Shown here: one piece after another, positions 46,745 to 58,705 of the stretch
How the letters are laid out: each line of letters begins with the position of its first letter
Numbering within the stretch: position 1 is the first letter of the stretch
DNA from: an uncultured Pelagibacteraceae bacterium
Lineage (GTDB): Bacteria > Pseudomonadota > Alphaproteobacteria > Pelagibacterales > Pelagibacteraceae
Direction: 5' to 3'
NCBI GenBank assembly: GCA_902627565.1
Contig: CACOJM010000007.1
Location: forward strand, 52-64,051
DNA: 64,000 bases
Notes under the pieces: generated by a model
Database searches by the model: none
What the model saw: the letters and a program-made list of their open reading frames with translations, nothing else
What the model was told of the DNA's origin: nothing
Program-made: the position numbers and the translations under genes

Positions 46745-48964
46745 TTAAAATGTGCCAAAAATTTCAAGATTTGCACCGTAATCAGGGATTTTACTAAATA
46801 AACTATAGTTTGAATTTAATTTTAAATTAAAATTACCCATTTGTTTTAGATAACTGACTTTCGTATTATTATTATTTGTTGGGTCATAAATTACATCAAA
46901 ATTTGCATTTTGTTTATTTACGTTACCAAACTTAATGAACAAACTATCTTTGTGACCACTTTTGTCCAGACTTTGAAATCTTTCATAGTTAATTGCAATT
47001 GTACGACCATCTAAACTCATATATTCAAAACCTATATTCCCTTTTACATTGTGTAATGAATGGTTATTTATAGTTTTTTTAAGAGTAATATTATCCACAT
47101 GATTTTTTACATAATGATCAATGTTTGGTGTTAAGTCATAAATATATTCAATAAATCCATTTCGACTTATAGTGTCATCATTTAAATATAAGATATTGTC
47201 AAATTTCAAACCTGCAGAAATATTTCCTGTTTTAAATGTAAGACTCTCGTGACTTTCAACGCTATTAGAGACAACACCAAAATCGGTATAATCTGAAAAT
47301 TGAGTAATTCCCATTTCAAGCTTTCCAAATGGAATTAATTCATATTTGGTATACTCATTTTCATTTTCATAGCTCATTGACGTATAAATTTGTTTTCCAT
47401 TTCTTTTACCTGTAACCTGATCTTTGCCTAACTGGTCTATCATTAAATAACTAGCACCAAATAATAAATTAAGATTTGACCGGTTTTTTAGAGGTACACT
47501 ACTGTATATATTCAGAGAAAACGTTTGTGCATCTAATTCATCACTTGACCCATCATCTATATCAACCTCGTCATTACCGTATCGAAATGCATAACCAAAA
47601 ATCTTTTTATCTACTAATTTGTCCGAACCAAACATAATACCTCTAGTCTTAACTTCCTTAGGTTTAGAGGATGCTGTATCACCAACTCTTCCAAATGAAA
47701 TATCTACGTGTGACCAGTAAGACCAATTCTTTTTATTTATTTTAGAATTTTCTTTTTTTAACGATGCTTGAGTATATTCAATATTATCTAATGAATTTTC
47801 TAAGTTCGTTTTCAATGCTGCTAAAATTGGATTATGAATATTCAATTTAACTTCATGATTAGTTAAATTAGCTCTTTCATCGTTTCTCCGTAACCATTCA
47901 AATCTTTTGAAAATTGTTGAAGAGTTTTGATGAATTACATTTTTAGCAATTTCTACTTGAGCCCCTATTGCTGTAACAGCATCTGTTTCACATATTACAA
48001 TTCCATAAGGACAAACTAAATCATATTCATATACTCTATCGAGATCACCTGATGCATCAATTTCGTACGTTGTCTGATAGAGTTTCATTCCGTCACTAGA
48101 AAAGCCTAATCCAATTGGAGTTCCTATTCCACCTGATGCATCAAAGAAATTTGTTATACTCCCAACAAAAGTTGCTGTGCTTGTATGAAAAGGTGTCGAT
48201 AATTTATAGACAGCAATTTTGGCATTAGCATTTGCGGATGTATGAGAGTCAATTACATACATTCTTGTTCCATCATCATCAAATTCTACATCTTGTTCGA
48301 ATAATGAAAGTTTACTAGTAACAACTAATTCATTTACAAAAGTTGCTGTGGATGGAACAAAAGGAGTGCTTAAATCATATTCCACCACTCCTCCATCTGC
48401 TATCTCATTATCACCACCATCGACAAAATACATCTTAGTTCCATCATTATTAAATGTGATATCACGTGGTCTAACATCCCCATCACCAGCACTAAATGCA
48501 GTTTTATAATCACTAACTCCATCATCTGCATCTTGTGAAAAATTTGAGATATCATACGGAGTAGTCAGAGTATGAATATTAAATGTACCGTTTTGACTTA
48601 TAACAAAAACTTTTGTCCCATCACTATTAAATTCATGACCTTGAACAAAAGTACCTACATCATCAGATCCAGCATCCAAATTTAATCGAACCTCAGAAGA
48701 AGTATCCATTGTGCTAATATCGAAAGGTGTAGTTAAAGTAAATTGACGTATAAAAGCAAAACCCGTTTCATTAGTAAAATTAGTGAAATGAATTTTTGTT
48801 CCATCTGGACTTAAAGTAACATCTGCTGGACCACCAATATCATCACCAGTAATATCAGTTACAGAAGCTGATTGCTTAAAAACTGGCATAACTACTGCAA
48901 ATGAATTTGAGGTTAAAACAAAAAAAGAAATAATGAAAATTTTAAAAAATATCTTCTGAATCAT
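46745..48964 (-). CDS. Autotransporter-like surface protein with beta-propeller passenger
   Basis: Signal peptide; five xxDGTK-type blades with L(S/T)TP(F/Y) repeats; C-terminal amphipathic beta strands; terminal Phe. Confidence 0.7.
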   Translation of the reverse strand: MIQKIFFKIFIISFFVLTSNSFAVVMPVFKQSASVTDITGDDIGGPADVTLSPDGTKIHFTNFTNETGFAFIRQFTLTTPFDISTMDTSSEVRLNLDAGSDDVGTFVQGHEFNSDGTKVFVISQNGTFNIHTLTTPYDISNFSQDADDGVSDYKTAFSAGDGDVRPRDITFNNDGTKMYFVDGGDNEIADGGVVEYDLSTPFVPSTATFVNELVVTSKLSLFEQDVEFDDDGTRMYVIDSHTSANANAKIAVYKLSTPFHTSTATFVGSITNFFDASGGIGTPIGLGFSSDGMKLYQTTYEIDASGDLDRVYEYDLVCPYGIVICETDAVTAIGAQVEIAKNVIHQNSSTIFKRFEWLRRNDERANLTNHEVKLNIHNPILAALKTNLENSLDNIEYTQASLKKENSKINKKNWSYWSHVDISFGRVGDTASSKPKEVKTRGIMFGSDKLVDKKIFGYAFRYGNDEVDIDDGSSDELDAQTFSLNIYSSVPLKNRSNLNLLFGASYLMIDQLGKDQVTGKRNGKQIYTSMSYENENEYTKYELIPFGKLEMGITQFSDYTDFGVVSNSVESHESLTFKTGNISAGLKFDNILYLNDDTISRNGFIEYIYDLTPNIDHYVKNHVDNITLKKTINNHSLHNVKGNIGFEYMSLDGRTIAINYERFQSLDKSGHKDSLFIKFGNVNKQNANFDVIYDPTNNNNTKVSYLKQMGNFNLKLNSNYSLFSKIPDYGANLEIFGTF

Positions 48965-48970
48965 GTTGGA

Positions 48971-51022
48971 TTATTTTTTCTTTATTAATTCAGTATTATT
49001 TATATTAATAGCCATACAAGTAATATCATCTCTTAATTTTTCAGCACCCCAATTTAACTCTTTCTCAATTGACTCAACAATAGTCTTTGGTGTCACTTCG
49101 GACATACTATCTATAATCTTTTGTACTCCTTCGGCTCCTAATTCTTCACCATTTTTTAAATAGCCTTCCGTTACACCGTCAGTATAAACAACAAATGTCT
49201 TATCTTTTAGGTTCATAGTATTGGATTTAACCATAGACTCTGTAAAATATTTAACAATTCCAATGGGTGGCATTTCTGACTTTATATATTCATAATTTTT
49301 ATTTTGATCAAAAGTTAAAATACTTTCGTGCCCTGCATTAATAAATACGAGTTCTCCAGTTTTGATATTTAGTTTTCCAAAAACAGCAGTTACAAACATC
49401 CCTTTAAATTTTGCCTCAACAAGCTCATTGTTCACTCCAAAGACAACTTTTTCTAAAGGGAATTTTAAATTAGTAAGTGTTCTAAATATTGACGATGCTT
49501 TTGCCATATACATACCAGCTTTAACTCCTTTTCCTGATACGTCGGCTAATGTAAAAAAGTACTCTTCTGGTGTTGCTCTTACCACATCAAAATAATCTCC
49601 TGATACATCTCTTGCTGGTACGTTTTTGGCAAAGATAAAGTTTTCAAATTTTGAGATATCTGGAAATAAACTTTTTTGAACTCCAGCAGCTAATTCTCTT
49701 TCTTTCAAAAGTTTCGCTTCTTTTTGTAAATTATCTAAAGCAATTTTATTTTCCTCAATAAATCTAAAATAAAGACCAGTTAAAAAAGTAATTGTAACAA
49801 TAAATATTGGATAACTCATATCAATAAGTTCAGATCTAAATTTATAGATAGAAAATCCAATAATTATTATTGCTAAAAGATTTCCAAAGAAAATAGATAA
49901 ACTATATTTCGGTTTTATTTTTTGAGAAAGAATGAATGTGATTAAAGCTACAATAATTGAAAATAATAACTCAAAAATATAAGTGTTTGGATTTCTAATT
50001 AAATAAGATTGATCTAAAATATTTTCAATTACATTCGCATGAACTTCTACTCCTGGAACAGTTACTCCTAAAGGAGTTTTAACTAGATCGAACAGTCCTT
50101 GGGCAGATGCTCCTATTAAAACATATTTATCTTTAAAAAAATCTGATTGAAATTTACCATCATAAACATCTCCAGCAGAGATATATTGTTTTTTATCTGA
50201 TTTTTTATATTTGATCCAAATTATACCATTAGGGTCTGAACTTATCTTATAAGGTCTTGCACTTATTCTATTAATCCCAACTTCATTTAATTCTACATAA
50301 ATATTTTTTTGATTAGACCCAACTCGAACCATTTCAAGCCCCATAGTTGGATATAGTTTTTTATTAAATTGAACAATAAGAGGTAAAGATCTTATAATTC
50401 CATCTAACTGATCTAAAAATGATATTGAACCTAATCCTTTTACGTCTTTTTCTAATATTTCAAGAGATCCAATTGAATAAGGGTATGAGTAAGTAAATTG
50501 CTTTGGATCTCCTCCTTTAGACAAAAATCTTGCTTTTGCTTTTCGATCATAATTGGAATGGGAAGGAACATTGCTTCCTAAAACTGCAATTATTGATTTA
50601 GACTCTTTTAATTTTTCAGAAAAGATATCATCAGGACCTTTTAATTTTTGAAGTTCAGCAACATCAGAAGGTATTAAATCGTAAGACTTAATTATTTCAT
50701 CAGGTGACTGTTTATCTTTTTCAGTAAAAAAAATATCAAACCCAATCGCTTTAGGGCTTGATGTATTGAGTTGATCAAGTATTTTTGCAAAGACATTTCT
50801 GTTCCACGGGAATTGTCCAAATTTTCCTAAACTCTCTTCATCTATATCAATAATTACAACTTCACTATCTTTTTTTTCTGCGAACACTTTTTGATAAAGA
50901 TCAAAACTAAGATATGAAACTGATTTGATAAATGAAGGATTGATTATCTTTAAAGAAATAAGAAGTAAAAGAACCAGTAAGAAAATTAAATAATTCTTGT
51001 GTTTTTGGAAAAATACTCTCAC
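48971..51022 (-). CDS. CHASE2 sensor fused to a SpoIIE/RsbU-type PP2C phosphatase
   Basis: CHASE2 motifs (IIDIDEESL..GQFPWNR, IGFDIFF, DGIIR, VLIG, TP..PGVEVHA), three TMs, then VSGDYFD, ADVSGKG, NAGH, YTDGVTE, DDIT. Confidence 0.9.
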   Translation of the reverse strand: MRVFFQKHKNYLIFLLVLLLLISLKIINPSFIKSVSYLSFDLYQKVFAEKKDSEVVIIDIDEESLGKFGQFPWNRNVFAKILDQLNTSSPKAIGFDIFFTEKDKQSPDEIIKSYDLIPSDVAELQKLKGPDDIFSEKLKESKSIIAVLGSNVPSHSNYDRKAKARFLSKGGDPKQFTYSYPYSIGSLEILEKDVKGLGSISFLDQLDGIIRSLPLIVQFNKKLYPTMGLEMVRVGSNQKNIYVELNEVGINRISARPYKISSDPNGIIWIKYKKSDKKQYISAGDVYDGKFQSDFFKDKYVLIGASAQGLFDLVKTPLGVTVPGVEVHANVIENILDQSYLIRNPNTYIFELLFSIIVALITFILSQKIKPKYSLSIFFGNLLAIIIIGFSIYKFRSELIDMSYPIFIVTITFLTGLYFRFIEENKIALDNLQKEAKLLKERELAAGVQKSLFPDISKFENFIFAKNVPARDVSGDYFDVVRATPEEYFFTLADVSGKGVKAGMYMAKASSIFRTLTNLKFPLEKVVFGVNNELVEAKFKGMFVTAVFGKLNIKTGELVFINAGHESILTFDQNKNYEYIKSEMPPIGIVKYFTESMVKSNTMNLKDKTFVVYTDGVTEGYLKNGEELGAEGVQKIIDSMSEVTPKTIVESIEKELNWGAEKLRDDITCMAININNTELIKKK

Positions 51023-51080
51023 TACACAAATCTATATTTAATTTAAATAAAGTAAATAAATCTTAATGAAAAAGTACTAA

Positions 51081-52352
51081 CTACTTCTTTCTTCTTCTTT
51101 TCTTCTTAGCTTTTCTCTTCTTAGCTGCTTTTTTCTTTTTAACTATTCTTTTCTTTTTAACAACTTTTTTCTTTTTCTTAGGTTTTTTCTTAACTACTTT
51201 TTTCTTTTTCTTAGGTTTTTTCTTAACTGCTTTTTTCTTTTTCTTAGCTGGTTTTTTCTTCACTGCTTTCTTTTTAGTAGCTTTTTTCTTGACTGCTTTC
51301 TTTTTAGTAGCTTTTTTCTTCACTGCTTTTTTCTTAGTAGCTTTTTTCTTAGTAGCTTTTTTCTTTTTACCTTTTTTCTTTTCAGCTTTAGCTTTTTTCT
51401 TTTTACCTTTTTTCTTAGTAGCTTTTTTCTTTTTACCTTTTTTCTTTTTGCCTTTATCTAATGCTGCATCTTTTTTAGCTTTTTTCTTTTCTGCTTTAGC
51501 TTTTTTCTTAGCTTTTTTCTCTGCTCTATCAGCTTTGATTGCTACTTTTTTCTCTTTATCTTTTTGAATATTTTGTTTTATGATTGTTTTAATTTCTTCT
51601 TTTTCAAAGCCCATTTGTTTTAATTCTTTTTTTAAACTTTTTCTTAATTGTTTTCGCTCGGCTTTTGTAGAATCCGGTGAAAGTTTAGCAACTCTCAATG
51701 CCTTCATTTTCTTATTAAATTTTTTTAATTGATTTTTTGTTATCTTTCTAGCTTGGCCTGGCGCCTTTCCTTTTGTCATTGAAGTCATGCTATAAGGATT
51801 ATCTAATAAAGTTTGACCAAATTTATTTCCAACAAGAACTGCTCCTGGTCTCATGCCAAGTGTATTATTTTTTCCAGGACCTACTAATAAAGTATCTGTT
51901 TTTCCTTTTGATACAATGGTTTGAAATTCTGTACCTCTTGAACCTAAAGTTCCTTCTGGTACTTCAACTGTTAAACTGTCAGGATTTTTTTTGCTAATTA
52001 ATCCTGAGATAACTTTTAAACTTCCTTGTTTAACACTTGCAACTATTTTTCCATCATTAGTTGATGGATCAAAAACAAAAGTATCCATTACTACTTCTGA
52101 GTCTTCTCCAATGGTAAAAGTTGATTGATCTAAAAGTAAAATTTGTGTTCCTGATCCTGCTCCAGCAAGAATTGTTTCATTTAAATAAATTTTATCACCA
52201 GCTTTTAATTGCCTAGTTTCGGTTTTGACAGTACCTGATATAGCACCTACAATTCCAACTAGTTGTTTTTCAATAGTTAATTTTTCCTCTGCATTTGAGT
52301 TTACACTCAATAAGAAAATCAAACCAAAGACAGTTGATAAAATTTTTTTCAT
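51081..52352 (-). CDS. Periplasmic FecR-domain protein with histone H1-like Lys-rich C-terminal tail
   Basis: Signal peptide; GDKIY..E.I...QILLLDQSTFTIGEDS, SGLISK, TLGSRGTEF (FecR-like); last ~123 aa are about 70% K/R. Confidence 0.8.
   Translation of the reverse strand: MKKILSTVFGLIFLLSVNSNAEEKLTIEKQLVGIVGAISGTVKTETRQLKAGDKIYLNETILAGAGSGTQILLLDQSTFTIGEDSEVVMDTFVFDPSTNDGKIVASVKQGSLKVISGLISKKNPDSLTVEVPEGTLGSRGTEFQTIVSKGKTDTLLVGPGKNNTLGMRPGAVLVGNKFGQTLLDNPYSMTSMTKGKAPGQARKITKNQLKKFNKKMKALRVAKLSPDSTKAERKQLRKSLKKELKQMGFEKEEIKTIIKQNIQKDKEKKVAIKADRAEKKAKKKAKAEKKKAKKDAALDKGKKKKGKKKKATKKKGKKKKAKAEKKKGKKKKATKKKATKKKAVKKKATKKKAVKKKATKKKAVKKKPAKKKKKAVKKKPKKKKKVVKKKPKKKKKVVKKKRIVKKKKAAKKRKAKKKRRRKK
51084..51452 (-). 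repeat. Tandem 15/30/33-nt coding repeats (KKKAT/KKKAV; KKKPKKKKKVV)
   Basis: For example, three near-identical 30-mers at 51251-51340. Confidence 0.85.
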
Positions 52353-52472
52353 TTTGCAAAAAGTAGCAAAATTTAGAAAAAAAACAAACTTTAAAAACCA
52401 AAAAAAAACTCATTTTGGTCATCGATTTTAAGTGTTTTTGGTAAATTTTGAGTTAAAAAATTAATAGTAATT

Positions 52473-53777
52473 TTAGTTAAGCCTAAATCCTCTTGAGAAA
52501 CTTAAAGACAAAGAATCAGTTATATAATCATAGTTAAGCATATTAGCTTCTGAAAAAAGTCTCTCATATGACAAGTTAATAAATAAAGATCTGTTTGGAT
52601 CGATCTGCGGAAATATGTCCCCTATAGCTTTAGTTAACATAACATCAAAAGTGTTTGTGTAATCTGATCTAATTTTTTTGGAAGTTACAGATGAATCTTC
52701 TTTTTTATAATCATTGAACCCAATAGAATTACTTACAGCAATATAAGCCCATGGAAAGGCAAAATTTACTCCTAAACCAAAATCATAAGTTTCATAATCG
52801 TTACCTGCATCAACTCTGGCATCTGTATCGCTGTATCCTAAACTTAAATTTGTTGAAATAATTGGAGTTAATATAAAATCATGTCCAAAAGTAAAACTAT
52901 GCCCAACAGAATTAGTTTCATTTGCTGTTGTGTCCATTGAATTGTCATTTCCTTTTGAATTAGAGTAAGCATATCCATAACTAAATGAATTCCTTTCACC
53001 AACTGAAAAGAAACCACCTACACCATACATTTTTGAAAAACTGTCTGCATCGTGCTGGTAATCTGATTTACTTAACATTAGGTAGGGACTTAAACTCTGG
53101 TTTCCTAATACAGTATCTAAGGCTAAAGTAAGACCATAACTTTGAAAATCATCGTCACTTTCATAATATTGTTCTGAAAGAGAATGAGAAGCATTAATTA
53201 AAAAAGACGACTCTTCTCCGATAGGTCTTGTTGCTGATATTCCAAGACCACCACTTAAGGTTCTGTCATGCATCGCAGAATTAAAACCAACCACACTTCC
53301 AGACTCTTCTTTGGTTCTTGTTTTTGAAACACTGTTAACATTGTTTGAGAAAAGACTTCCTACTGAAATATCTGCAGTTAAATTCCAAAGGCTCGGTTCT
53401 CTATCTCTTAATTCTTCCTCAATTTCTAATAAAGTTTCTAAATCTTCTTGCTCTAAATCTTTCATCAATTTCATTTCCTCTATAATCGTGTTTGCTTTCT
53501 CAGGAGAGTCAACCTGAACCAAAATCGATAACAGTAATAATTTTATTTCAGTGTTATCAGGATAAAGCATATTAAGTCTTTCAAGTGTAGAAATTGTTTG
53601 TTTGAAATTTCCCATCTTACCTTGTTGTTGGGCGTACTTTAAATTCAAATCTAAATCATTAGGCTTTTGTAAAATTTGCATATAGGTAATATTTTTTTCC
53701 GATGAAAAAACAGAGGTCGTGATCAACAATATAGTTGAGACAAATAATATTTTTATTCTGTTTGAACTTAAAAACAT
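52473..53777 (-). CDS. TPR plus outer-membrane beta-barrel protein (Slam/NsrA-like architecture)
   Basis: Signal peptide; TPR-like PNDLDLNLKYA..TLERLNMLYPDN; SNNVN motif; alternating Gly/aromatic beta strands. Confidence 0.7.
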   Translation of the reverse strand: MFLSSNRIKILFVSTILLITTSVFSSEKNITYMQILQKPNDLDLNLKYAQQQGKMGNFKQTISTLERLNMLYPDNTEIKLLLLSILVQVDSPEKANTIIEEMKLMKDLEQEDLETLLEIEEELRDREPSLWNLTADISVGSLFSNNVNSVSKTRTKEESGSVVGFNSAMHDRTLSGGLGISATRPIGEESSFLINASHSLSEQYYESDDDFQSYGLTLALDTVLGNQSLSPYLMLSKSDYQHDADSFSKMYGVGGFFSVGERNSFSYGYAYSNSKGNDNSMDTTANETNSVGHSFTFGHDFILTPIISTNLSLGYSDTDARVDAGNDYETYDFGLGVNFAFPWAYIAVSNSIGFNDYKKEDSSVTSKKIRSDYTNTFDVMLTKAIGDIFPQIDPNRSLFINLSYERLFSEANMLNYDYITDSLSLSFSRGFRLN

Positions 53778-53823
53778 AAGAAACGAAAGATATAAGCTAT
53801 ATTATTTTTTTCAATTAATAATT

Positions 53824-54264
53824 TTAATTACACTCGGATTTGTCGATAGCGCCTGTGTTATCTGTTGTTATTTTACAGTCACCAAGTCCCTTGGCCACGG
53901 CTGTATAAGCGGTCACATTTTGAGTATAAGTACAATATACAAAACCACCCGCTTCAACATCTATGTAATTAGCTTTTCCAAATAATTGGGTTCCAATTGT
54001 AGATGTAGTAGTTGCATTAGCATCGCATTCTTCTTCCGCAGCTGCTGTATCACAATATTCACCAGCAGATGAAAAATATGATGCACAATCAGCATAGTGA
54101 TCTGTTTGAGCTAAGCCGATTTGCATTAAAACGTTTTCAGCTGCTTTTTTTTTTGAGCCTTCTACATAACCATTGTATGAGACAGTTCCAACTGCAGATA
54201 AAATTCCGATAATTGCAACAACAACTAAGAGCTCGATTAAAGTAAATCCCGAGCTCTTAGTCAT
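53824..54264 (-). CDS. Type IV pilin (PilE-like, probably minor)
   Basis: G|FTLIELLVVVAIIGILS class III signal; six Cys. Confidence 0.9.
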   Translation of the reverse strand: MTKSSGFTLIELLVVVAIIGILSAVGTVSYNGYVEGSKKKAAENVLMQIGLAQTDHYADCASYFSSAGEYCDTAAAEEECDANATTTSTIGTQLFGKANYIDVEAGGFVYCTYTQNVTAYTAVAKGLGDCKITTDNTGAIDKSECN

Positions 54265-54278
54265 ATAATTTTTTATTC

Positions 54279-54818
54279 TTATTCTAAAGAAATTGAATCT
54301 TCTACATTATCATTATCACCACTATCAAATTTTGATGTAATTGAAATAGTGTTTCCTGAAGATCCATCAAGTTGAACATAGCCTAAAGCATTTTCACCAC
54401 AGCTTGACTCTGTTTCCGTTTCTGATTCAGTAGAAGCTTCAGCATCACCCTCTGCTTCCATAACTGCCGCACAACCTGTATCGAATGGATTTTTATCACC
54501 CAAAATCGAGTTTTCAGTAACATGTGTTACTACATCAGCCCCAGCTGTACTATCATTTACTGATGATACATAGTCTGAGCAAGCCATACCATTTGAACCA
54601 GTGTTATCTTTTAAGATTGTTGCGCCACTATCTAAGCTACACTTTTTTGTTTCTGCTGCTAGCACTTTAACAACATTAGCATGAATAGTTTTCACTGCAT
54701 TTTTCTTGGCAGCATTTGTATATCCATTGTATGCAACAACACCCACTGCGGCTAGAATACCAATGATTGCAACAACAACCAATAATTCTATTAAAGTAAA
54801 ACCTTTATTGTTTTTCAT
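54279..54818 (-). CDS. pilA: Type IV pilin (probable major pilin)
   Basis: KG|FTLIELLVVVAIIGILAA; GAGGG RBS; own promoter region. Confidence 0.85.
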   Translation of the reverse strand: MKNNKGFTLIELLVVVAIIGILAAVGVVAYNGYTNAAKKNAVKTIHANVVKVLAAETKKCSLDSGATILKDNTGSNGMACSDYVSSVNDSTAGADVVTHVTENSILGDKNPFDTGCAAVMEAEGDAEASTESETETESSCGENALGYVQLDGSSGNTISITSKFDSGDNDNVEDSISLE

Positions 54819-54989: not shown

Positions 54990-55289
54990 ATGACTTATAA
55001 AGTTACAGAAGAAGGAAACGTCAGTACTGTTTTTTTAAATGGTGAAATAGATATGGATGTTACTGAAAAAGCTAAAGAGCAAATTTTGCCTTTAGTTGAA
55101 GCTGGTAAAGAAGTTCACCTAAATTTAAAAGATGTTTCTTACATGGACTCTTCTGGAATTTCTATTCTTATTGAAAGCCATCAAAAGGCTCTTGAATTGA
55201 ATACTAAAGTCATAATCAAAGAGGTAAGTAAATCTGTTTTAAAAGTTATTATGATGGCTAAACTTGAGCAGATATTAAACTTAGAATAA
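54990..55289 (+). CDS. STAS-domain anti-anti-sigma factor (RsbV/SpoIIAA-like)
   Basis: LNGEID, LNLKDVSYMDSSGI with the phospho-acceptor Ser. Confidence 0.92.
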   Translation: MTYKVTEEGNVSTVFLNGEIDMDVTEKAKEQILPLVEAGKEVHLNLKDVSYMDSSGISILIESHQKALELNTKVIIKEVSKSVLKVIMMAKLEQILNLE

Positions 55290-55702
55290 TGAACATTCAA
55301 GAATCTAAAGATTTTTTAGTTAGTACTGCTAGTTTAAAAGAAGTACGAACTTTTTCTAGAGAAGTGTTTGAAAAAATAAATTTACCACAAGATCAAAAAG
55401 ATGAACTTGTATTAGCTATTGCTGAAGCTGCTCAAAATATTGTTAAACATGCTTACAAAGATGTTGTTGAAACTTCAGACAGAATGGAAATTAAAATTTC
55501 ACTTAAAGATAAGGATTTAGAAATAGGTTTTTTTGACAAAGGTAAAGCAGTAATACCTGAAAATATCAAACACAGAAAATTAGACGATATTAAACCTGGT
55601 GGACTTGGAACTTTTTTCATCAAGCAGATTATGGATGCTGCTGTTTTTAAAAAAGATCAAAAAGAATGGGTAAACCACTTAGTGCTTACAAAAAAAATTT
55701 AG
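55289..55702 (+). CDS. RsbW/SpoIIAB-like Ser kinase / anti-sigma factor
   Basis: LAIAEAAQNIVKHAY (N box), FDKG, GGLGTFFI; translationally coupled to the STAS gene. Confidence 0.9.
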   Translation: MNIQESKDFLVSTASLKEVRTFSREVFEKINLPQDQKDELVLAIAEAAQNIVKHAYKDVVETSDRMEIKISLKDKDLEIGFFDKGKAVIPENIKHRKLDDIKPGGLGTFFIKQIMDAAVFKKDQKEWVNHLVLTKKI

Positions 55703-56934
55703 CCTATTAATGCTCCAACATTAAAGATTGGAGAGTACATCGCAATCATCAAACCACCGATCATCACTCCCATAAAAACAATCATAATTGGTTCAATCAA
55801 ACTTGACATGTTATCAACTGTTGTATCGAATTCTTCCTCATAATAAGTTGCAACTGATCCAAACATTTCATCTAATTGACCTGTCTGTTCACCAACAGAA
55901 ATAAGTTGGCTGAACGTTGGTGGAAATAAAGGTTCTTTTAAAAAAAGTTTTGTTAAAGTATCTCCTGAAAAAACACCCTTCTTAACATTTTCTAAAGCTT
56001 CAGTTACAACAACATTGTTGCTGACTGATTTTGCAATCTCAATACTCTCTAATAAATTAACGCCCGCTGCACTTAAATTTCCTAGAATTAATGAAATTCT
56101 AGCTAGTAAAGATTTTAAAATCATTTCTCCAAATACTGGTAATTTTAAAATTTGTTTATGCCATCTATATTGAAATGCAGCATTTTTTGTTGTTAAATAT
56201 CTAAAGATAACCACAAATGAAATAATTGAAATAAGCATAACTAATCCACCTGTTCCTCTTAAAAAATCACTCATCGACATAATTACTGCTGTTGGTTTTG
56301 GTAAAGCTAATCCCATACCTTCATACATCTTAGCAAAAACTGGCACTACTTTGATTAACATAAATGCACTGACAGTTATCGCTACGGAAAACATTATTGA
56401 TGGGTACATTAATGCAGATTTTATTTTCTTTTTTATCTTTTCTTTTTTTTCAAGTGAGTCCACTATCTTTAAAAGAAAAACATCTAGTTTACCACTGGCC
56501 TCACCAGCTTTAATTAAATTACAATAAACATTATCAAAATATTGTGGATATTTTTCAAAACATTTAGACAATGTTACACCACCCTCAAGGCTTTTTCTGA
56601 TGTCTTCAATTACTTCTTTAATAGCAGGACTTTCTAATTGATCTCTTAACATGCCTAGAACCTCAAGTATTGGCAGACCTGCCTTTACCATAGTTGCAAA
56701 TTGTTTTGAAAAAATTAAAACGTCCTCTACTTTTACTTTTTTCTTTCCAAATGAAAAACCTGCACCTTTTGCTTTAGTTTTAGCCTCTCCTTTTTTCTTT
56801 TTTGCTCTAATTAGATTAGTAATTATGATTTTTTGTTCTTTAAGTTTATGAGATGCCTCTTCCTGATTAATAGCCTCAATATCACCCGTTACGTATTTCC
56901 CGTCTGCGATACCTTTATATGTGAAAGCTTCCAT
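55699..56934 (-). CDS. pilC: Type IV pilus platform protein PilC
   Basis: QFATMVKAGLP, AGEASGKLD, KSALMYP, VGEQTGQLD, IEP, MYSPIF. Confidence 0.93.
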   Translation of the reverse strand: MEAFTYKGIADGKYVTGDIEAINQEEASHKLKEQKIIITNLIRAKKKKGEAKTKAKGAGFSFGKKKVKVEDVLIFSKQFATMVKAGLPILEVLGMLRDQLESPAIKEVIEDIRKSLEGGVTLSKCFEKYPQYFDNVYCNLIKAGEASGKLDVFLLKIVDSLEKKEKIKKKIKSALMYPSIMFSVAITVSAFMLIKVVPVFAKMYEGMGLALPKPTAVIMSMSDFLRGTGGLVMLISIISFVVIFRYLTTKNAAFQYRWHKQILKLPVFGEMILKSLLARISLILGNLSAAGVNLLESIEIAKSVSNNVVVTEALENVKKGVFSGDTLTKLFLKEPLFPPTFSQLISVGEQTGQLDEMFGSVATYYEEEFDTTVDNMSSLIEPIMIVFMGVMIGGLMIAMYSPIFNVGALIG

Positions 56935-56953
56935 TACTCTTTATATATACTAA

Positions 56954-58705
56954 TTATGAAGCTGATAAAACCCGTTCATACTCCCTAAAATTAAGCTCCC
57001 CATTCGCAATTAGTCTTCTACCCATATCTTGCATGGTTTGAAAACCCTCTTTTATTGCAATTTCTCTTAATTCAGGTGTTGTTGCCTTTCTAAGTATTGC
57101 CTCTTTAACAGGTTTTGAAACTACCAAAATTTCATAAAGACCCTGTCTTCCCTTATAGCCAGTATCTTTACATTTAGCGCAACCTTTTCCTTTTACAGCT
57201 TTTACTCTAGAAGCTTGTTCTGGAGAAAAACCTAAATCCTGTAAAACCTTTGGATTAACATCGTCGTCTGGAACCCTACACTCTTTGCAAGTTCTTCTTG
57301 CTAATCTTTGTGCTAAAACTAATTGGCAAGCAGCACTAATTAAATAATCAGGTGTTCCCATATTTTGTAATCTAGTAATTGTGCTTGGAGCATCATTGGT
57401 GTGCAAAGTACTAAATACTAAGTGTCCTGTTAATGCAGCTTTTAATCCTATATCAACAGTTTCTTTATCTCGCATCTCTCCAACTAGAATAATTTCTGGG
57501 TCTTGTCTTAAAAAAGATCTTAATGCTGCAGCAAAACTTAGTCCAATGTCGTCTTTTATCTGTACCTGTCCAACACCATCTAATTCATATTCTACCGGAT
57601 CTTCGGCTGTTAAAATATTTAAATGAGGCTTACTAACTTCTTTTAAGATACTATAAAGAGTTGTAGATTTACCAGATCCAGTTGGTCCAGTTACTAATAT
57701 TAATCCTTGAGTTGAATAAATCGCTTTTCTTAAATTTTTTAAATCTGCATCTTCAAAGTTTAGTTGTTCTAAAGTAATGTCTCCAGCATCTTTGTTTAAT
57801 ACCCGCATTACTATTCTCTCATTATTAGCTGTTGGTAAAATTGATAATCGTAAATCAACAACCTTTCCATCAATTTTAAAATTTATTGCTCCGTCTTGTG
57901 GTAATCGTCTTTCAGCAATATCTAATTTACCCATGATTTTAAATCGGGTTACTACTGCTCCATAATTATCATGAAGAAATTGTTTATATTGCTCTTGTTC
58001 TGTTAGCATTCCATCTAAACGATATCTTACTCTTGAAGAGAACCTGTAAGGTTCTATATGAATATCACTAACTCCTGATTTGATTGCTTCTGCAACAACT
58101 GCTGTACTAAATTTTATAACTTCAGACTCATTCTCTATAGCTTCTATATCTTCTTCAGGAGCTTTTTCTAAAACTTCACCTGCTTCACCTAGATCAGATT
58201 CAAAAGTTTTAGTTTTTTCCTTATTTTCTTTTCTAATTGTTGCAGTTGTAACATCTCCACTTTCCGATTGAAGTTTTTCTATAAATTCTGAAATCTGAGA
58301 TATCTTAGCAGCATGTAATTCAATATTTTTTTTTGTTATCGCTTTTAAATTTCTCATTAGACCAAGTTTTGAACTGTCAGAGATTGCAATATGAAGAGAT
58401 TTGCCTTCAACTTTAAATGGAGCTACAAAATTTACATTTATGTAATTTGAAGGTAGAACACTTTTAATTTCATCACTGATTTGAATTTTTGAAAGATCAA
58501 CAACTTCAAGACTCTGCTCTTTAACTAATACATCAAGGATTTTATCCTCATCTGTAAGCTTAAGTTCAAAAACTGCGTCTATCTGAGATTTATTTCCTTC
58601 AGTGCTAATTTTTTTAATGTTTATTAAATCTTTTCCAGAGATAATATCATTATCAATTAATACATTTATTAAGTTAATTTCACTTTCTCTACTAATTTTA
58701 AGCAT
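56954..58705 (-). CDS. pilB: Type IV pilus extension ATPase PilB
   Basis: SDIHIEP, ERRLPQDG, GPTGSGKSTT, EDPVE, LRQDPE, TGHLVFSTLHTN, tetra-Cys zinc motif. Confidence 0.93.
   Translation of the reverse strand: MLKISRESEINLINVLIDNDIISGKDLINIKKISTEGNKSQIDAVFELKLTDEDKILDVLVKEQSLEVVDLSKIQISDEIKSVLPSNYINVNFVAPFKVEGKSLHIAISDSSKLGLMRNLKAITKKNIELHAAKISQISEFIEKLQSESGDVTTATIRKENKEKTKTFESDLGEAGEVLEKAPEEDIEAIENESEVIKFSTAVVAEAIKSGVSDIHIEPYRFSSRVRYRLDGMLTEQEQYKQFLHDNYGAVVTRFKIMGKLDIAERRLPQDGAINFKIDGKVVDLRLSILPTANNERIVMRVLNKDAGDITLEQLNFEDADLKNLRKAIYSTQGLILVTGPTGSGKSTTLYSILKEVSKPHLNILTAEDPVEYELDGVGQVQIKDDIGLSFAAALRSFLRQDPEIILVGEMRDKETVDIGLKAALTGHLVFSTLHTNDAPSTITRLQNMGTPDYLISAACQLVLAQRLARRTCKECRVPDDDVNPKVLQDLGFSPEQASRVKAVKGKGCAKCKDTGYKGRQGLYEILVVSKPVKEAILRKATTPELREIAIKEGFQTMQDMGRRLIANGELNFREYERVLSAS

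Follow-up and report, generated by a model that had tools for sequence, protein, structure and literature searches.

Two described settings bring FecR-domain proteins together with CHASE2 receptors, namely the BiofilmReg operon of Burkholderia, where a LysM-FecR protein lies beside a CHASE2 sensor (PMC5192318), and the CHASE2 cyclase cluster of Campylobacterota, which includes FecR and TPR (tetratricopeptide repeat) proteins (PMC9239204). In both papers the co-occurrence is noted only in passing, and we found in the literature no functional study of FecR proteins encoded beside CHASE2 or TPR genes. A TPR domain followed by a 14-strand barrel is the architecture of the DUF560 barrels of the type 11 secretion system (T11SS) (PMC8406197), whose cargo genes usually stand beside the barrel genes (PMC8406197, PMC12282271); DUF560 and FecR were not found together in the T11SS literature, and a 2025 survey of T11SS cargo makes no mention of FecR. 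As for cationic chains at the outer membrane, RcsF exposes a cationic surface segment, threaded through an outer-membrane protein (OMP), that senses the charge of lipopolysaccharide (LPS) (PMC4942254), and the electronegative TPR groove of PgaA binds the cationic polymer dPNAG (de-N-acetylated poly-N-acetylglucosamine) (PMC9384988). Here we describe a gene at 51081..52352 on the minus strand of a 64,000-nucleotide stretch from an uncultured Pelagibacteraceae bacterium (assembly GCA_902627565.1, contig CACOJM010000007.1, positions 52 to 64,051; the whole stretch is called the window below, and positions are counted in it). This gene encodes a FecR-domain protein with a very long polylysine tail and stands between the genes of a TPR-barrel protein and of a CHASE2 phosphatase. 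No earlier description of such a FecR-polylysine protein in SAR11 was found in the literature under Pelagibacter/SAR11, FecR, lysine-rich and CHASE2.

The gene is a single open reading frame (ORF), stop codon included, with a translation of 423 aa (P0001); the window has 30.7% GC, the source genome (1.03 Mb, 85% complete) has 29%, and the closest public relatives of the gene all belong to Pelagibacteraceae or Candidatus Pelagibacter (SAR11). By sequence pattern and by comparison with orthologues, residues 1-21 (52290..52352, minus strand) read as a Sec-type signal peptide with a KK n-region, a 14-residue hydrophobic core and a predicted cut between SNA and EE, a pattern which the orthologues keep as VFA, SYA or SFA before EE, and the AlphaFold model, built from an 80-row alignment, has a helix at 2-17 in this region. 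No lipobox cysteine was found in the signal peptide, and because of this missing cysteine the protein is not a lipoprotein. Residues 30-200 (51753..52265, minus strand) form a beta domain with the FecR fold: Pfam FecR (PF04773) matches residues 60-153 with 31.7 bits against a cut-off of 24, and with 34.6 bits when residues 1-210 are searched alone; the domain is modelled with a predicted local distance difference test (pLDDT) score above 90; and its best Foldseek match is the C-terminal cell-surface signalling domain (CCSSD) of PupR (6OVK, E 6.8e-6), followed by 4M0N/4M0H at E ~1e-4. By profile as well as by fold, the domain is thus a true member of the FecR family.

After the FecR domain comes a helical linker (residues 204-319, 51396..51743, minus strand), whose sequence is kept across species orthologues and for which helices are predicted at 206-218 and 230-246, with one long helix at 251-319. 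The polylysine tail then occupies residues 301-423 (51084..51452, minus strand), and among these 123 residues there are 80 K, 5 R, 1 E and 0 D. While residues 315-392 are predicted to be disordered, the last part, residues 395-423 (51084..51170, minus strand), is a conserved polybasic end of the type KKKR[IV]VKKKKAAKKRKAKKKRRKKK, modelled as a helix at 395-422 with pLDDT 90-96 and nearly the same in most of the 98 intact orthologues described below. The tail has tandem periods of 15, 30, 33, 45 and 66 nucleotides (nt), which correspond to 5-residue units KKKAT/KKKAV and 11-residue units KKKPKKKKKVV. In these respects the sequence-only reading of this DNA, which had announced an exported FecR-domain protein with a charged helical linker, an extremely polycationic tail of repeats written in mixed AAA/AAG codons and a CHASE2 phosphatase next to it, is confirmed in full by the signal-peptide pattern, the predicted helices, the family matches and the counts obtained here. 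Its comparison of the tail with histone H1 and Hc2 stands for the composition and falls for the homology, as Pfam searches with residues 301-423 and 196-423 at E up to 10 returned only noise (Mucin, E 4.8; WH_MCM3_C, E 0.088) and no detectable kinship with those families.

The tail is real and common to all close orthologues, and it is not an assembly artefact, which was the doubt the sequence-only reading had left against itself. Of the best 120 matches of a search in 5.8 billion proteins, each with a FecR domain of at least 93% identity, 98 are intact, and their tails, counted after a DKEKK motif, measure 109-163 aa. They come in 34 lengths and 80 different sequences, with K+R held at 61-68% and a net charge of +66 to +99, so that the variation of length among strains expected earlier is now plainly seen. 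Moreover, species-level Pelagibacteraceae genomes, among them single-cell and HIMB-labelled ones, hold about 50 complete copies, whose tails agree in composition and measure 123-180 aa. In several single-cell and metagenome assemblies the contig ends inside the tail repeat (L053, L064-L066, L077, L090, L106, L113), meaning that the repeat is hard to assemble and not that it was invented. In the metagenome gene catalogue, about one fifth of the close orthologues stop early, with out-of-frame-looking sequence within the tail (P0005, P0013, P0015, P0057, P0058, P0061, P0107, P0111; P0015 stands for 11 sequences on a 175-kb contig), and these forms may either come from homopolymer sequencing errors or be genuine slippage variants.

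Lysine is written with AAA and AAG 51 and 29 times in the tail, compared with 46 and 6 times in the rest of the gene (AAG 36% versus 12%), and the longest A-run in the tail is 6 nt despite runs of five lysines (6-8 nt in the orthologues). When the AAG positions were shuffled among the lysines of the tail, the mean longest A-run was 13 nt and none of 5000 trials gave 6 nt or less. Since iterated AAA leads to ribosome sliding (PMC4363877), the broken A-runs are direct evidence of selection for faithful synthesis of polylysine. In natural populations, represented by contigs across the tail from marine DNA runs and RNA libraries, every small indel is 3 nt, and at the larger clean joints 99, 75 and 147 nt are skipped while 9, 9 and 3 letters, respectively, stand in between, which leaves the frame intact. 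At the scale of the genome, five of the 2755 ORFs of at least 60 aa have at least 25 K/R per 50 aa, and the FecR-polylysine ORF is the most extreme of them (37/50) and the sole one with a C-terminal stretch (a signal peptide was read for this ORF alone). The other four carry N-terminal stretches of 50-70 residues with 27-30 K/R in 50 aa (C5:23926-26055(+), C10:7544-9289(+), C1:98921-100132(+) and C6:36327-37238(+)). In short, the tail is an intrinsically disordered polycation under selection, with a charge of about +70 to +100 and a polybasic end that is conserved.

The neighbourhood of the gene is conserved as well. Six genes follow one another on the minus strand in the order pilin, pilin, TPR-barrel protein, FecR-polylysine protein, CHASE2-PP2C and a 739-aa protein; the barrel protein (52473..53777), recognised by its AlphaFold model and by the Pfam matches of its relatives, is encoded directly upstream, and the downstream gene (48971..51022) encodes a CHASE2 sensor, with its periplasmic domain at about residues 30-350, fused to a PP2C/SpoIIE phosphatase (Pfam CHASE2, E 6.6e-55; SpoIIE, E 4.2e-32). 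The loci of the polylysine orthologues keep the order barrel protein, FecR-polylysine protein, CHASE2-PP2C, and L002-L006 and L013-L015 have the trio. In other species of the genus the order becomes CHASE2-PP2C, barrel protein, FecR-X, where X is not lysine-rich and is either an extension of 300-700 aa, acidic or S/T-rich, or encoded by a gene of its own. This FecR-X trio lies between a prepilin peptidase and pilins in two loci and elsewhere in one further genome, and in one metagenomic locus a prepilin peptidase is found beside the barrel-protein/FecR-X pair. The trio of barrel protein, FecR protein and CHASE2-PP2C is conserved, usually together with type IV pilus genes. Among the 10 proteins scanned between 46745 and 58705 there is no sigma-factor or TonB-receptor family, and the FecR-polylysine protein is not a FecR-type anti-sigma regulator.

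What kind of protein is the barrel? Taken alone, it gives only weak TPR and barrel profile matches in Pfam. Its AlphaFold model (mean pLDDT 84) has a signal peptide, three TPRs of six helices (32-124) and 14 long strands (132-432), which is the order of TPR and 14-strand barrel seen in Slam/DUF560 proteins. Its best TM-scores are with 14-strand barrels (OmpG 0.67-0.79, CymA ~0.6), and a comparison of the model with the PDB gave generic barrels only, with no Slam structure among the matches. The relatives are more telling: of 45 aligned members of the barrel family, 8 match SlipAM (best E 7.9e-14), 11 TPR_Slam and 6 DUF2860, and in the Atlas clusters nearest to it by features and shape, SlipAM or DUF2860 occurs in 12-35% of the members and TPR_Slam also in a minority. 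A Pfam SlipAM search of the whole genome gave no match, and it gave none in control genomes either and so is uninformative. Homologues are present in 37 of 247 near-complete alphaproteobacterial genomes, and many alphaproteobacterial loci read as a barrel-protein gene followed by a signal-peptide protein that starts with a FecR-family motif. By its modelled architecture and the Pfam matches of its relatives, the barrel protein appears to be related to Slam/DUF560, and we call it Slam-like.

The two neighbours are predicted to bind each other. Complex prediction with the FecR-polylysine protein and the barrel protein gave an interface score (ipSAE) of 0.83 (runs 0.82, 0.87 and 0.83), against 0.00 for the best control, with a partner pLDDT of at least 67 and at least 59% of the contacts common to the runs; 58 of 80 solved complexes pass the mark used for docking, as do 2 of 110 mismatched pairs, counts which are only rough as our own alignments were used. 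In the model, TPR residues 32-123 face the FecR beta domain and the linker helices at 204-266, the FecR residues inside the interface being 33-39, 70-80, 115-117 and 157-167, while the first ~60 residues of the linker pack on the TPR. The interface also holds all three invariant columns of the barrel family (P39, G56, R67) and 9 of 29 conserved FecR columns (p 0.0014, 0.015, 0.03), and the conserved residue Q70 and segment G158-N163 of the FecR-polylysine protein fall within it. The TPR of the neighbouring Slam-like barrel is thus the predicted direct partner of the FecR-polylysine protein.

The tail itself is narrowly distributed in this family. Of 11,474 homologues we surveyed the best 150 representatives at 50% identity, and polylysine is found only in the closest clusters (at least 84% identity), the rest having S/T-rich or acidic extensions that belong to no Pfam family. 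In two relatives (P0149 and P0150) a K/A/Q-rich helical spacer leads to a conserved terminal domain (motifs SSGxYTY and IDFxxRTI), which the polylysine clade does not have. The tail, absent beyond the closest clusters, thus replaces the usual C-terminal module in this lineage, and perhaps it is an overgrown spacer. The conserved C-terminal domain of the relatives has no Pfam match, its profile (A3) finds nothing among PDB sequences at E up to 10, and an Atlas search with P0123 gave no usable match; only sub-threshold protein-language neighbours were obtained, namely TbpB_B_D, FHBP_C and HpuA (scores 0.78-0.83), and as a lead this beta-rich domain may be TbpB-barrel-like. Two genomes deserve mention here. 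In G019 the orthologue (L006:1362-2684) has a strongly acidic insert of ~40 residues in the linker directly before the tail, so that acidic and basic blocks stand in one chain. G017 has a polylysine copy (L005, contig C4) plus a second FecR-X copy with an S/T-rich C-terminal domain (L012/L016, contig C5), which means that both types can coexist as paralogues. Besides, 498 viral contigs (IMG/VR) encode distant FecR-domain relatives, but they give no support to a phage origin of the tail, as the best 80 of them (L131-L210) are only 23-34% identical and a rough scan found no lysine-rich stretch in these 80. Pelagiphages are reported to carry curli-secretion modules with FecR and adenylate cyclase (PMC9599517), and outer-membrane pores of several kinds may have FecR-type adaptors linked to them.

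The barrel protein differs in charge together with the tail. In four polylysine loci its net charge is -24 to -30 (-24 in the window), and in six tail-less relatives it is -8, +7, -3, +2, +2 and +7. The extra acidity of the polylysine clade is spread over TPR, strands, periplasmic turns and external loops, and where the strands face the lumen the residues are small and polar, with 9 D/E against 2 K/R. Three tail-less loci added to this comparison showed that the moderately basic spacer of P0149 (+27) has no accompanying acidic barrel. The charge of the periplasmic CHASE2 domain follows no trend with the type of tail, and the electrostatic pairing of tail and CHASE2 was dropped on this ground.

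As for the remaining genes of the locus, the two type IV pilin genes (Pfam N_methyl) lie directly upstream of the trio on the same strand (53824..54818, minus), and the pilin at 53824..54264 has a sub-threshold match to the ComP receptor of DNA uptake sequences (DUS), with 23.7 bits against a cut-off of 27.3. On the plus strand follow a STAS protein of anti-anti-sigma type (54990..55289, Pfam STAS) and an RsbW-like kinase (55289..55702, Pfam HATPase_c_2), and PilC and PilB lie at 55699..58705. From what is known of these families, the STAS/RsbW-like pair is likely a partner switch fed by the CHASE2-PP2C phosphatase. At the other end, 6 nt after the CHASE2-PP2C gene, the 739-aa protein (46745..48964, minus strand) starts with a signal peptide, and Pfam gave nothing for it at E up to 0.01. 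A scan of 50700-54000 found no terminator, and promoter-like sites there are near chance level. In two marine metatranscriptome libraries the contigs cover 51044-52324 and leave the flanks 50800-51043 and 52325-52600 uncovered, though DNA runs cover these, which weakly suggests that the FecR-polylysine gene has a transcript of its own or a more abundant one; both RNA runs come from one study and were chosen with this gene, and for this reason no claim is made on transcript ends or expression level.

How could these parts work together? Our preferred reading, which we hold tentatively and at rather less than an even chance, is that the gene product serves as the periplasmic adaptor of a three-part envelope sensor that many Pelagibacter strains have in their type IV pilus locus, with its tail engaging the acidified barrel or the anionic outer membrane. 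The protein would be exported by Sec, and its FecR fold with the first linker helices would dock, as modelled, on the periplasmic TPR of the upstream Slam/DUF560-like barrel. Judging from the conserved neighbourhood and from related families, the state of this outer-membrane complex might be relayed to CHASE2-PP2C in the inner membrane, and the phosphatase would then presumably dephosphorylate the STAS protein and flip the RsbW-like switch. The tail, taking in this lineage the place that the C-terminal beta-rich domain seems to have in the relatives, may engage the strongly acidified barrel and the anionic surface of the outer membrane, by threading through the barrel or by wrapping onto it, and it would then be the electrostatic sensing or gating element of the module.

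Several points speak against the adaptor reading. The tail lies outside the confident interface of the complex model, and the barrel protein of the window has no Pfam match to SlipAM (PF04575) or TPR_Slam (PF24575). The polylysine loci are close kin, so that their charge contrast amounts to one evolutionary event and is a hint, not a statistic. Sister species with an acidic or neutral extension at the same position make it clear that the module does not need a polycation, and the tail may be accessory since they do without it. Transport of the tail is awkward in terms of energy, since SecYEG would have to pass ~100 positive charges against the membrane potential and a 14-strand barrel would then have to pass them again. 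Furthermore, what targets canonical T11SS cargo is a C-terminal barrel of 8 strands (PMC8406197), and the FecR-polylysine protein has none.

A different use of the same parts would be a periplasmic tether or ruler, in which the FecR domain sits on the TPR while the ~10-nm helix and the tail reach down, the tail adheres to anionic lipids of the inner membrane or to the peptidoglycan, and the complex is held near CHASE2, the tail doing the job of LysM in the Burkholderia LysM-FecR proteins. The order of the elements fits well, with the helix 251-319 followed by a disordered stretch and the conserved polybasic end, and so do the K/A/Q-rich helical spacers between the FecR and terminal domains of P0149 and P0150 and the LysM-FecR proteins that adjoin CHASE2 kinases (PMC5192318); a free length with a fixed composition would likewise suit a spacer or an anchor. 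However, a ruler is expected to hold its length while the tail varies from 109 to 180 aa, and a tether leaves unexplained why the barrel, its external loops included, is ~25-30 charges more acidic in the polylysine clade only. We judge it somewhat unlikely. The adaptor reading can also be carried further, to a trans-outer-membrane sensor on a type 11 secretion chassis, in which the tail is drawn through the barrel and becomes a surface antenna for the charge of LPS, for DNA or polyphosphate or for phage contact, while the FecR domain stays clamped to the TPR and signals to CHASE2-PP2C and STAS/RsbW, thereby setting the activity of the pilus; this extension is unlikely in our estimate.

An improbable role is that of a periplasmic polyanion trap, which would hold pilus-imported DNA in the manner of ComEA, or polyphosphate or phosphate, and report its occupancy to CHASE2. 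It is suggested by so extreme a polycation within a type IV pilus locus, by the weak ComP_DUS-type match of one pilin (23.7 bits, below cut-off) and by the large labile pool of extracellular phosphate in SAR11 cells, ~7e7 molecules per cell and of unknown molecular basis (PMC4525184). But a search of 41 genomes from the genus, of which 40 are at least 90% complete, turned up no ComEC (PF03772); no ComEA-type HHH_3 (PF12836) exceeds the cut-off in the genome, which is 85% complete (the best, 19.9 bits, is in another gene); and Pfam finds no HHH_3 in the FecR-polylysine protein. The ratchet for incoming DNA that the sequence-only reading had proposed is disfavoured by these searches. Neither does the tail have homology to DNA-binding families, and in sister species the extension within this trio is acidic or neutral. 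By our own arithmetic the phosphate pool would take several hundred thousand tails of +100 per cell, and on this copy number a phosphate buffer as the main role of the tail was rejected. LPS or polyphosphate is a possible, putative ligand of the tail.

We think it a little less probable again that the protein is a type 11 secretion cargo, which would pass whole through the Slam-like barrel and be displayed or released as a polycationic adhesin or aggregation factor, with anionic particles, polymers or cells as its targets, and not act as a signalling subunit. The Slam-like features of the barrel, the place of the gene beside it, as is usual for T11SS cargo (PMC8406197, PMC12282271), the TbpB_B_D, FHBP_C and HpuA neighbours which alone turned up for the C-terminal domain of the relatives in the language search, as a lead only, and a hypervariability typical of surface structures all point in this direction. 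Against it, the model has a disordered or helical tail and no C-terminal barrel or other beta domain there, the TbpB-like domain of the relatives is confirmed by neither the Pfam nor the PDB profile search, every solved example of the FecR fold is a signalling domain of the periplasm, and the conserved CHASE2 link (also in PMC9239204) argues for signalling. Finally, a neutral low-complexity expansion, a lysine run without own function made by AT-rich drift and replication slippage, would draw on the 29% GC of the genome with AAA as the common lysine codon, on the slippage-prone tandem repeats, on the very variable length and on some truncated or frameshift-like forms in metagenome gene calls, but it is highly improbable given that composition and C-terminal end are held in ~150 copies, A-runs are systematically broken, indels in populations are in frame only, the stretch is the single most extreme in K/R of the genome, and the charge of the barrel protein changed along with the tail.

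SAR11 has very few regulators, and a conserved sensor module in its pilus locus likely controls something important for the most abundant heterotroph of the ocean. CHASE2 is widespread and its signals are unknown, and the predicted chain from Slam-like barrel through FecR adaptor to CHASE2 provides a concrete and testable model of how such a receptor is fed. The same chain points to a part in signalling for type 11 secretion-like barrels. The codon pattern of the tail shows cleanly, in a natural polylysine gene, how slippery poly(A) is selected against, the hypervariable length may serve as a strain marker, and an exported protein with ~100 net positive charges is a biophysical oddity both for export and for behaviour in the envelope.

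Compared with the known systems, the sigma regulators FecR/PupR (6OVK) share the periplasmic fold and, as far as the model goes, the docking on a periplasmic domain of an outer-membrane barrel for trans-envelope signalling. In the present protein, in contrast, there is no cytoplasmic anti-sigma domain and no membrane helix, just a cleavable signal peptide, and a polylysine tail is added; the predicted partner is the TPR of a Slam-like barrel instead of the signalling domain of a TonB-dependent transducer, and the probable output is CHASE2-PP2C with a partner switch instead of an extracytoplasmic function (ECF) sigma factor. The barrel-cargo pairs of T11SS (PMC8406197, PMC12282271) likewise have a TPR plus 14-strand barrel adjoining the gene of a secreted protein, and relatives of our barrel protein match SlipAM and TPR_Slam. 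Yet the polylysine protein has no C-terminal barrel, its contact is predicted through the N-terminal FecR domain, the barrel protein is below the Pfam SlipAM cut-off, and a CHASE2 signalling link is not described for T11SS. Two further likenesses concern only how the parts may work. In RcsF-OMP (PMC4942254) a cationic segment at a barrel reads the charge of the outer membrane and a periplasmic domain signals to the inner membrane, but there is no homology, RcsF being a small lipoprotein whose surface segment has 5 basic residues, while the present protein is unlipidated and has ~100, and threading here is a proposal. PgaA (PMC9384988) is also an electronegative TPR-plus-barrel protein of the outer membrane that handles a linear polycation, though its polymer is a polysaccharide, its barrel has 16 strands (PMC8406197) and it has no FecR or CHASE2 partner. 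Histone H1 tails, Hc2 and AlgP-type proteins resemble the tail as disordered polycations of short K/A/P-rich repeats; they act on DNA in the cytoplasm or nucleus, whereas the signal peptide and the periplasmic fold suggest another location here.

There remain the FecR-CHASE2 loci of Burkholderia and Campylobacterota, where a secreted FecR protein also adjoins a CHASE2 receptor, often with a TPR protein, and the FecR-polylysine protein is probably the same kind of accessory subunit. It differs from them in that a polylysine tail stands instead of LysM or another domain, the output is a PP2C phosphatase and not a kinase or cyclase, the locus is that of a type IV pilus, and the TPR protein is a predicted 14-strand Slam-like barrel and binding partner. 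What is new here is twofold: on the side of the TPR protein, a probable Slam-like identity and a predicted docking, and on the side of the FecR protein, a selected, length-variable polylysine tail with a co-acidified partner.

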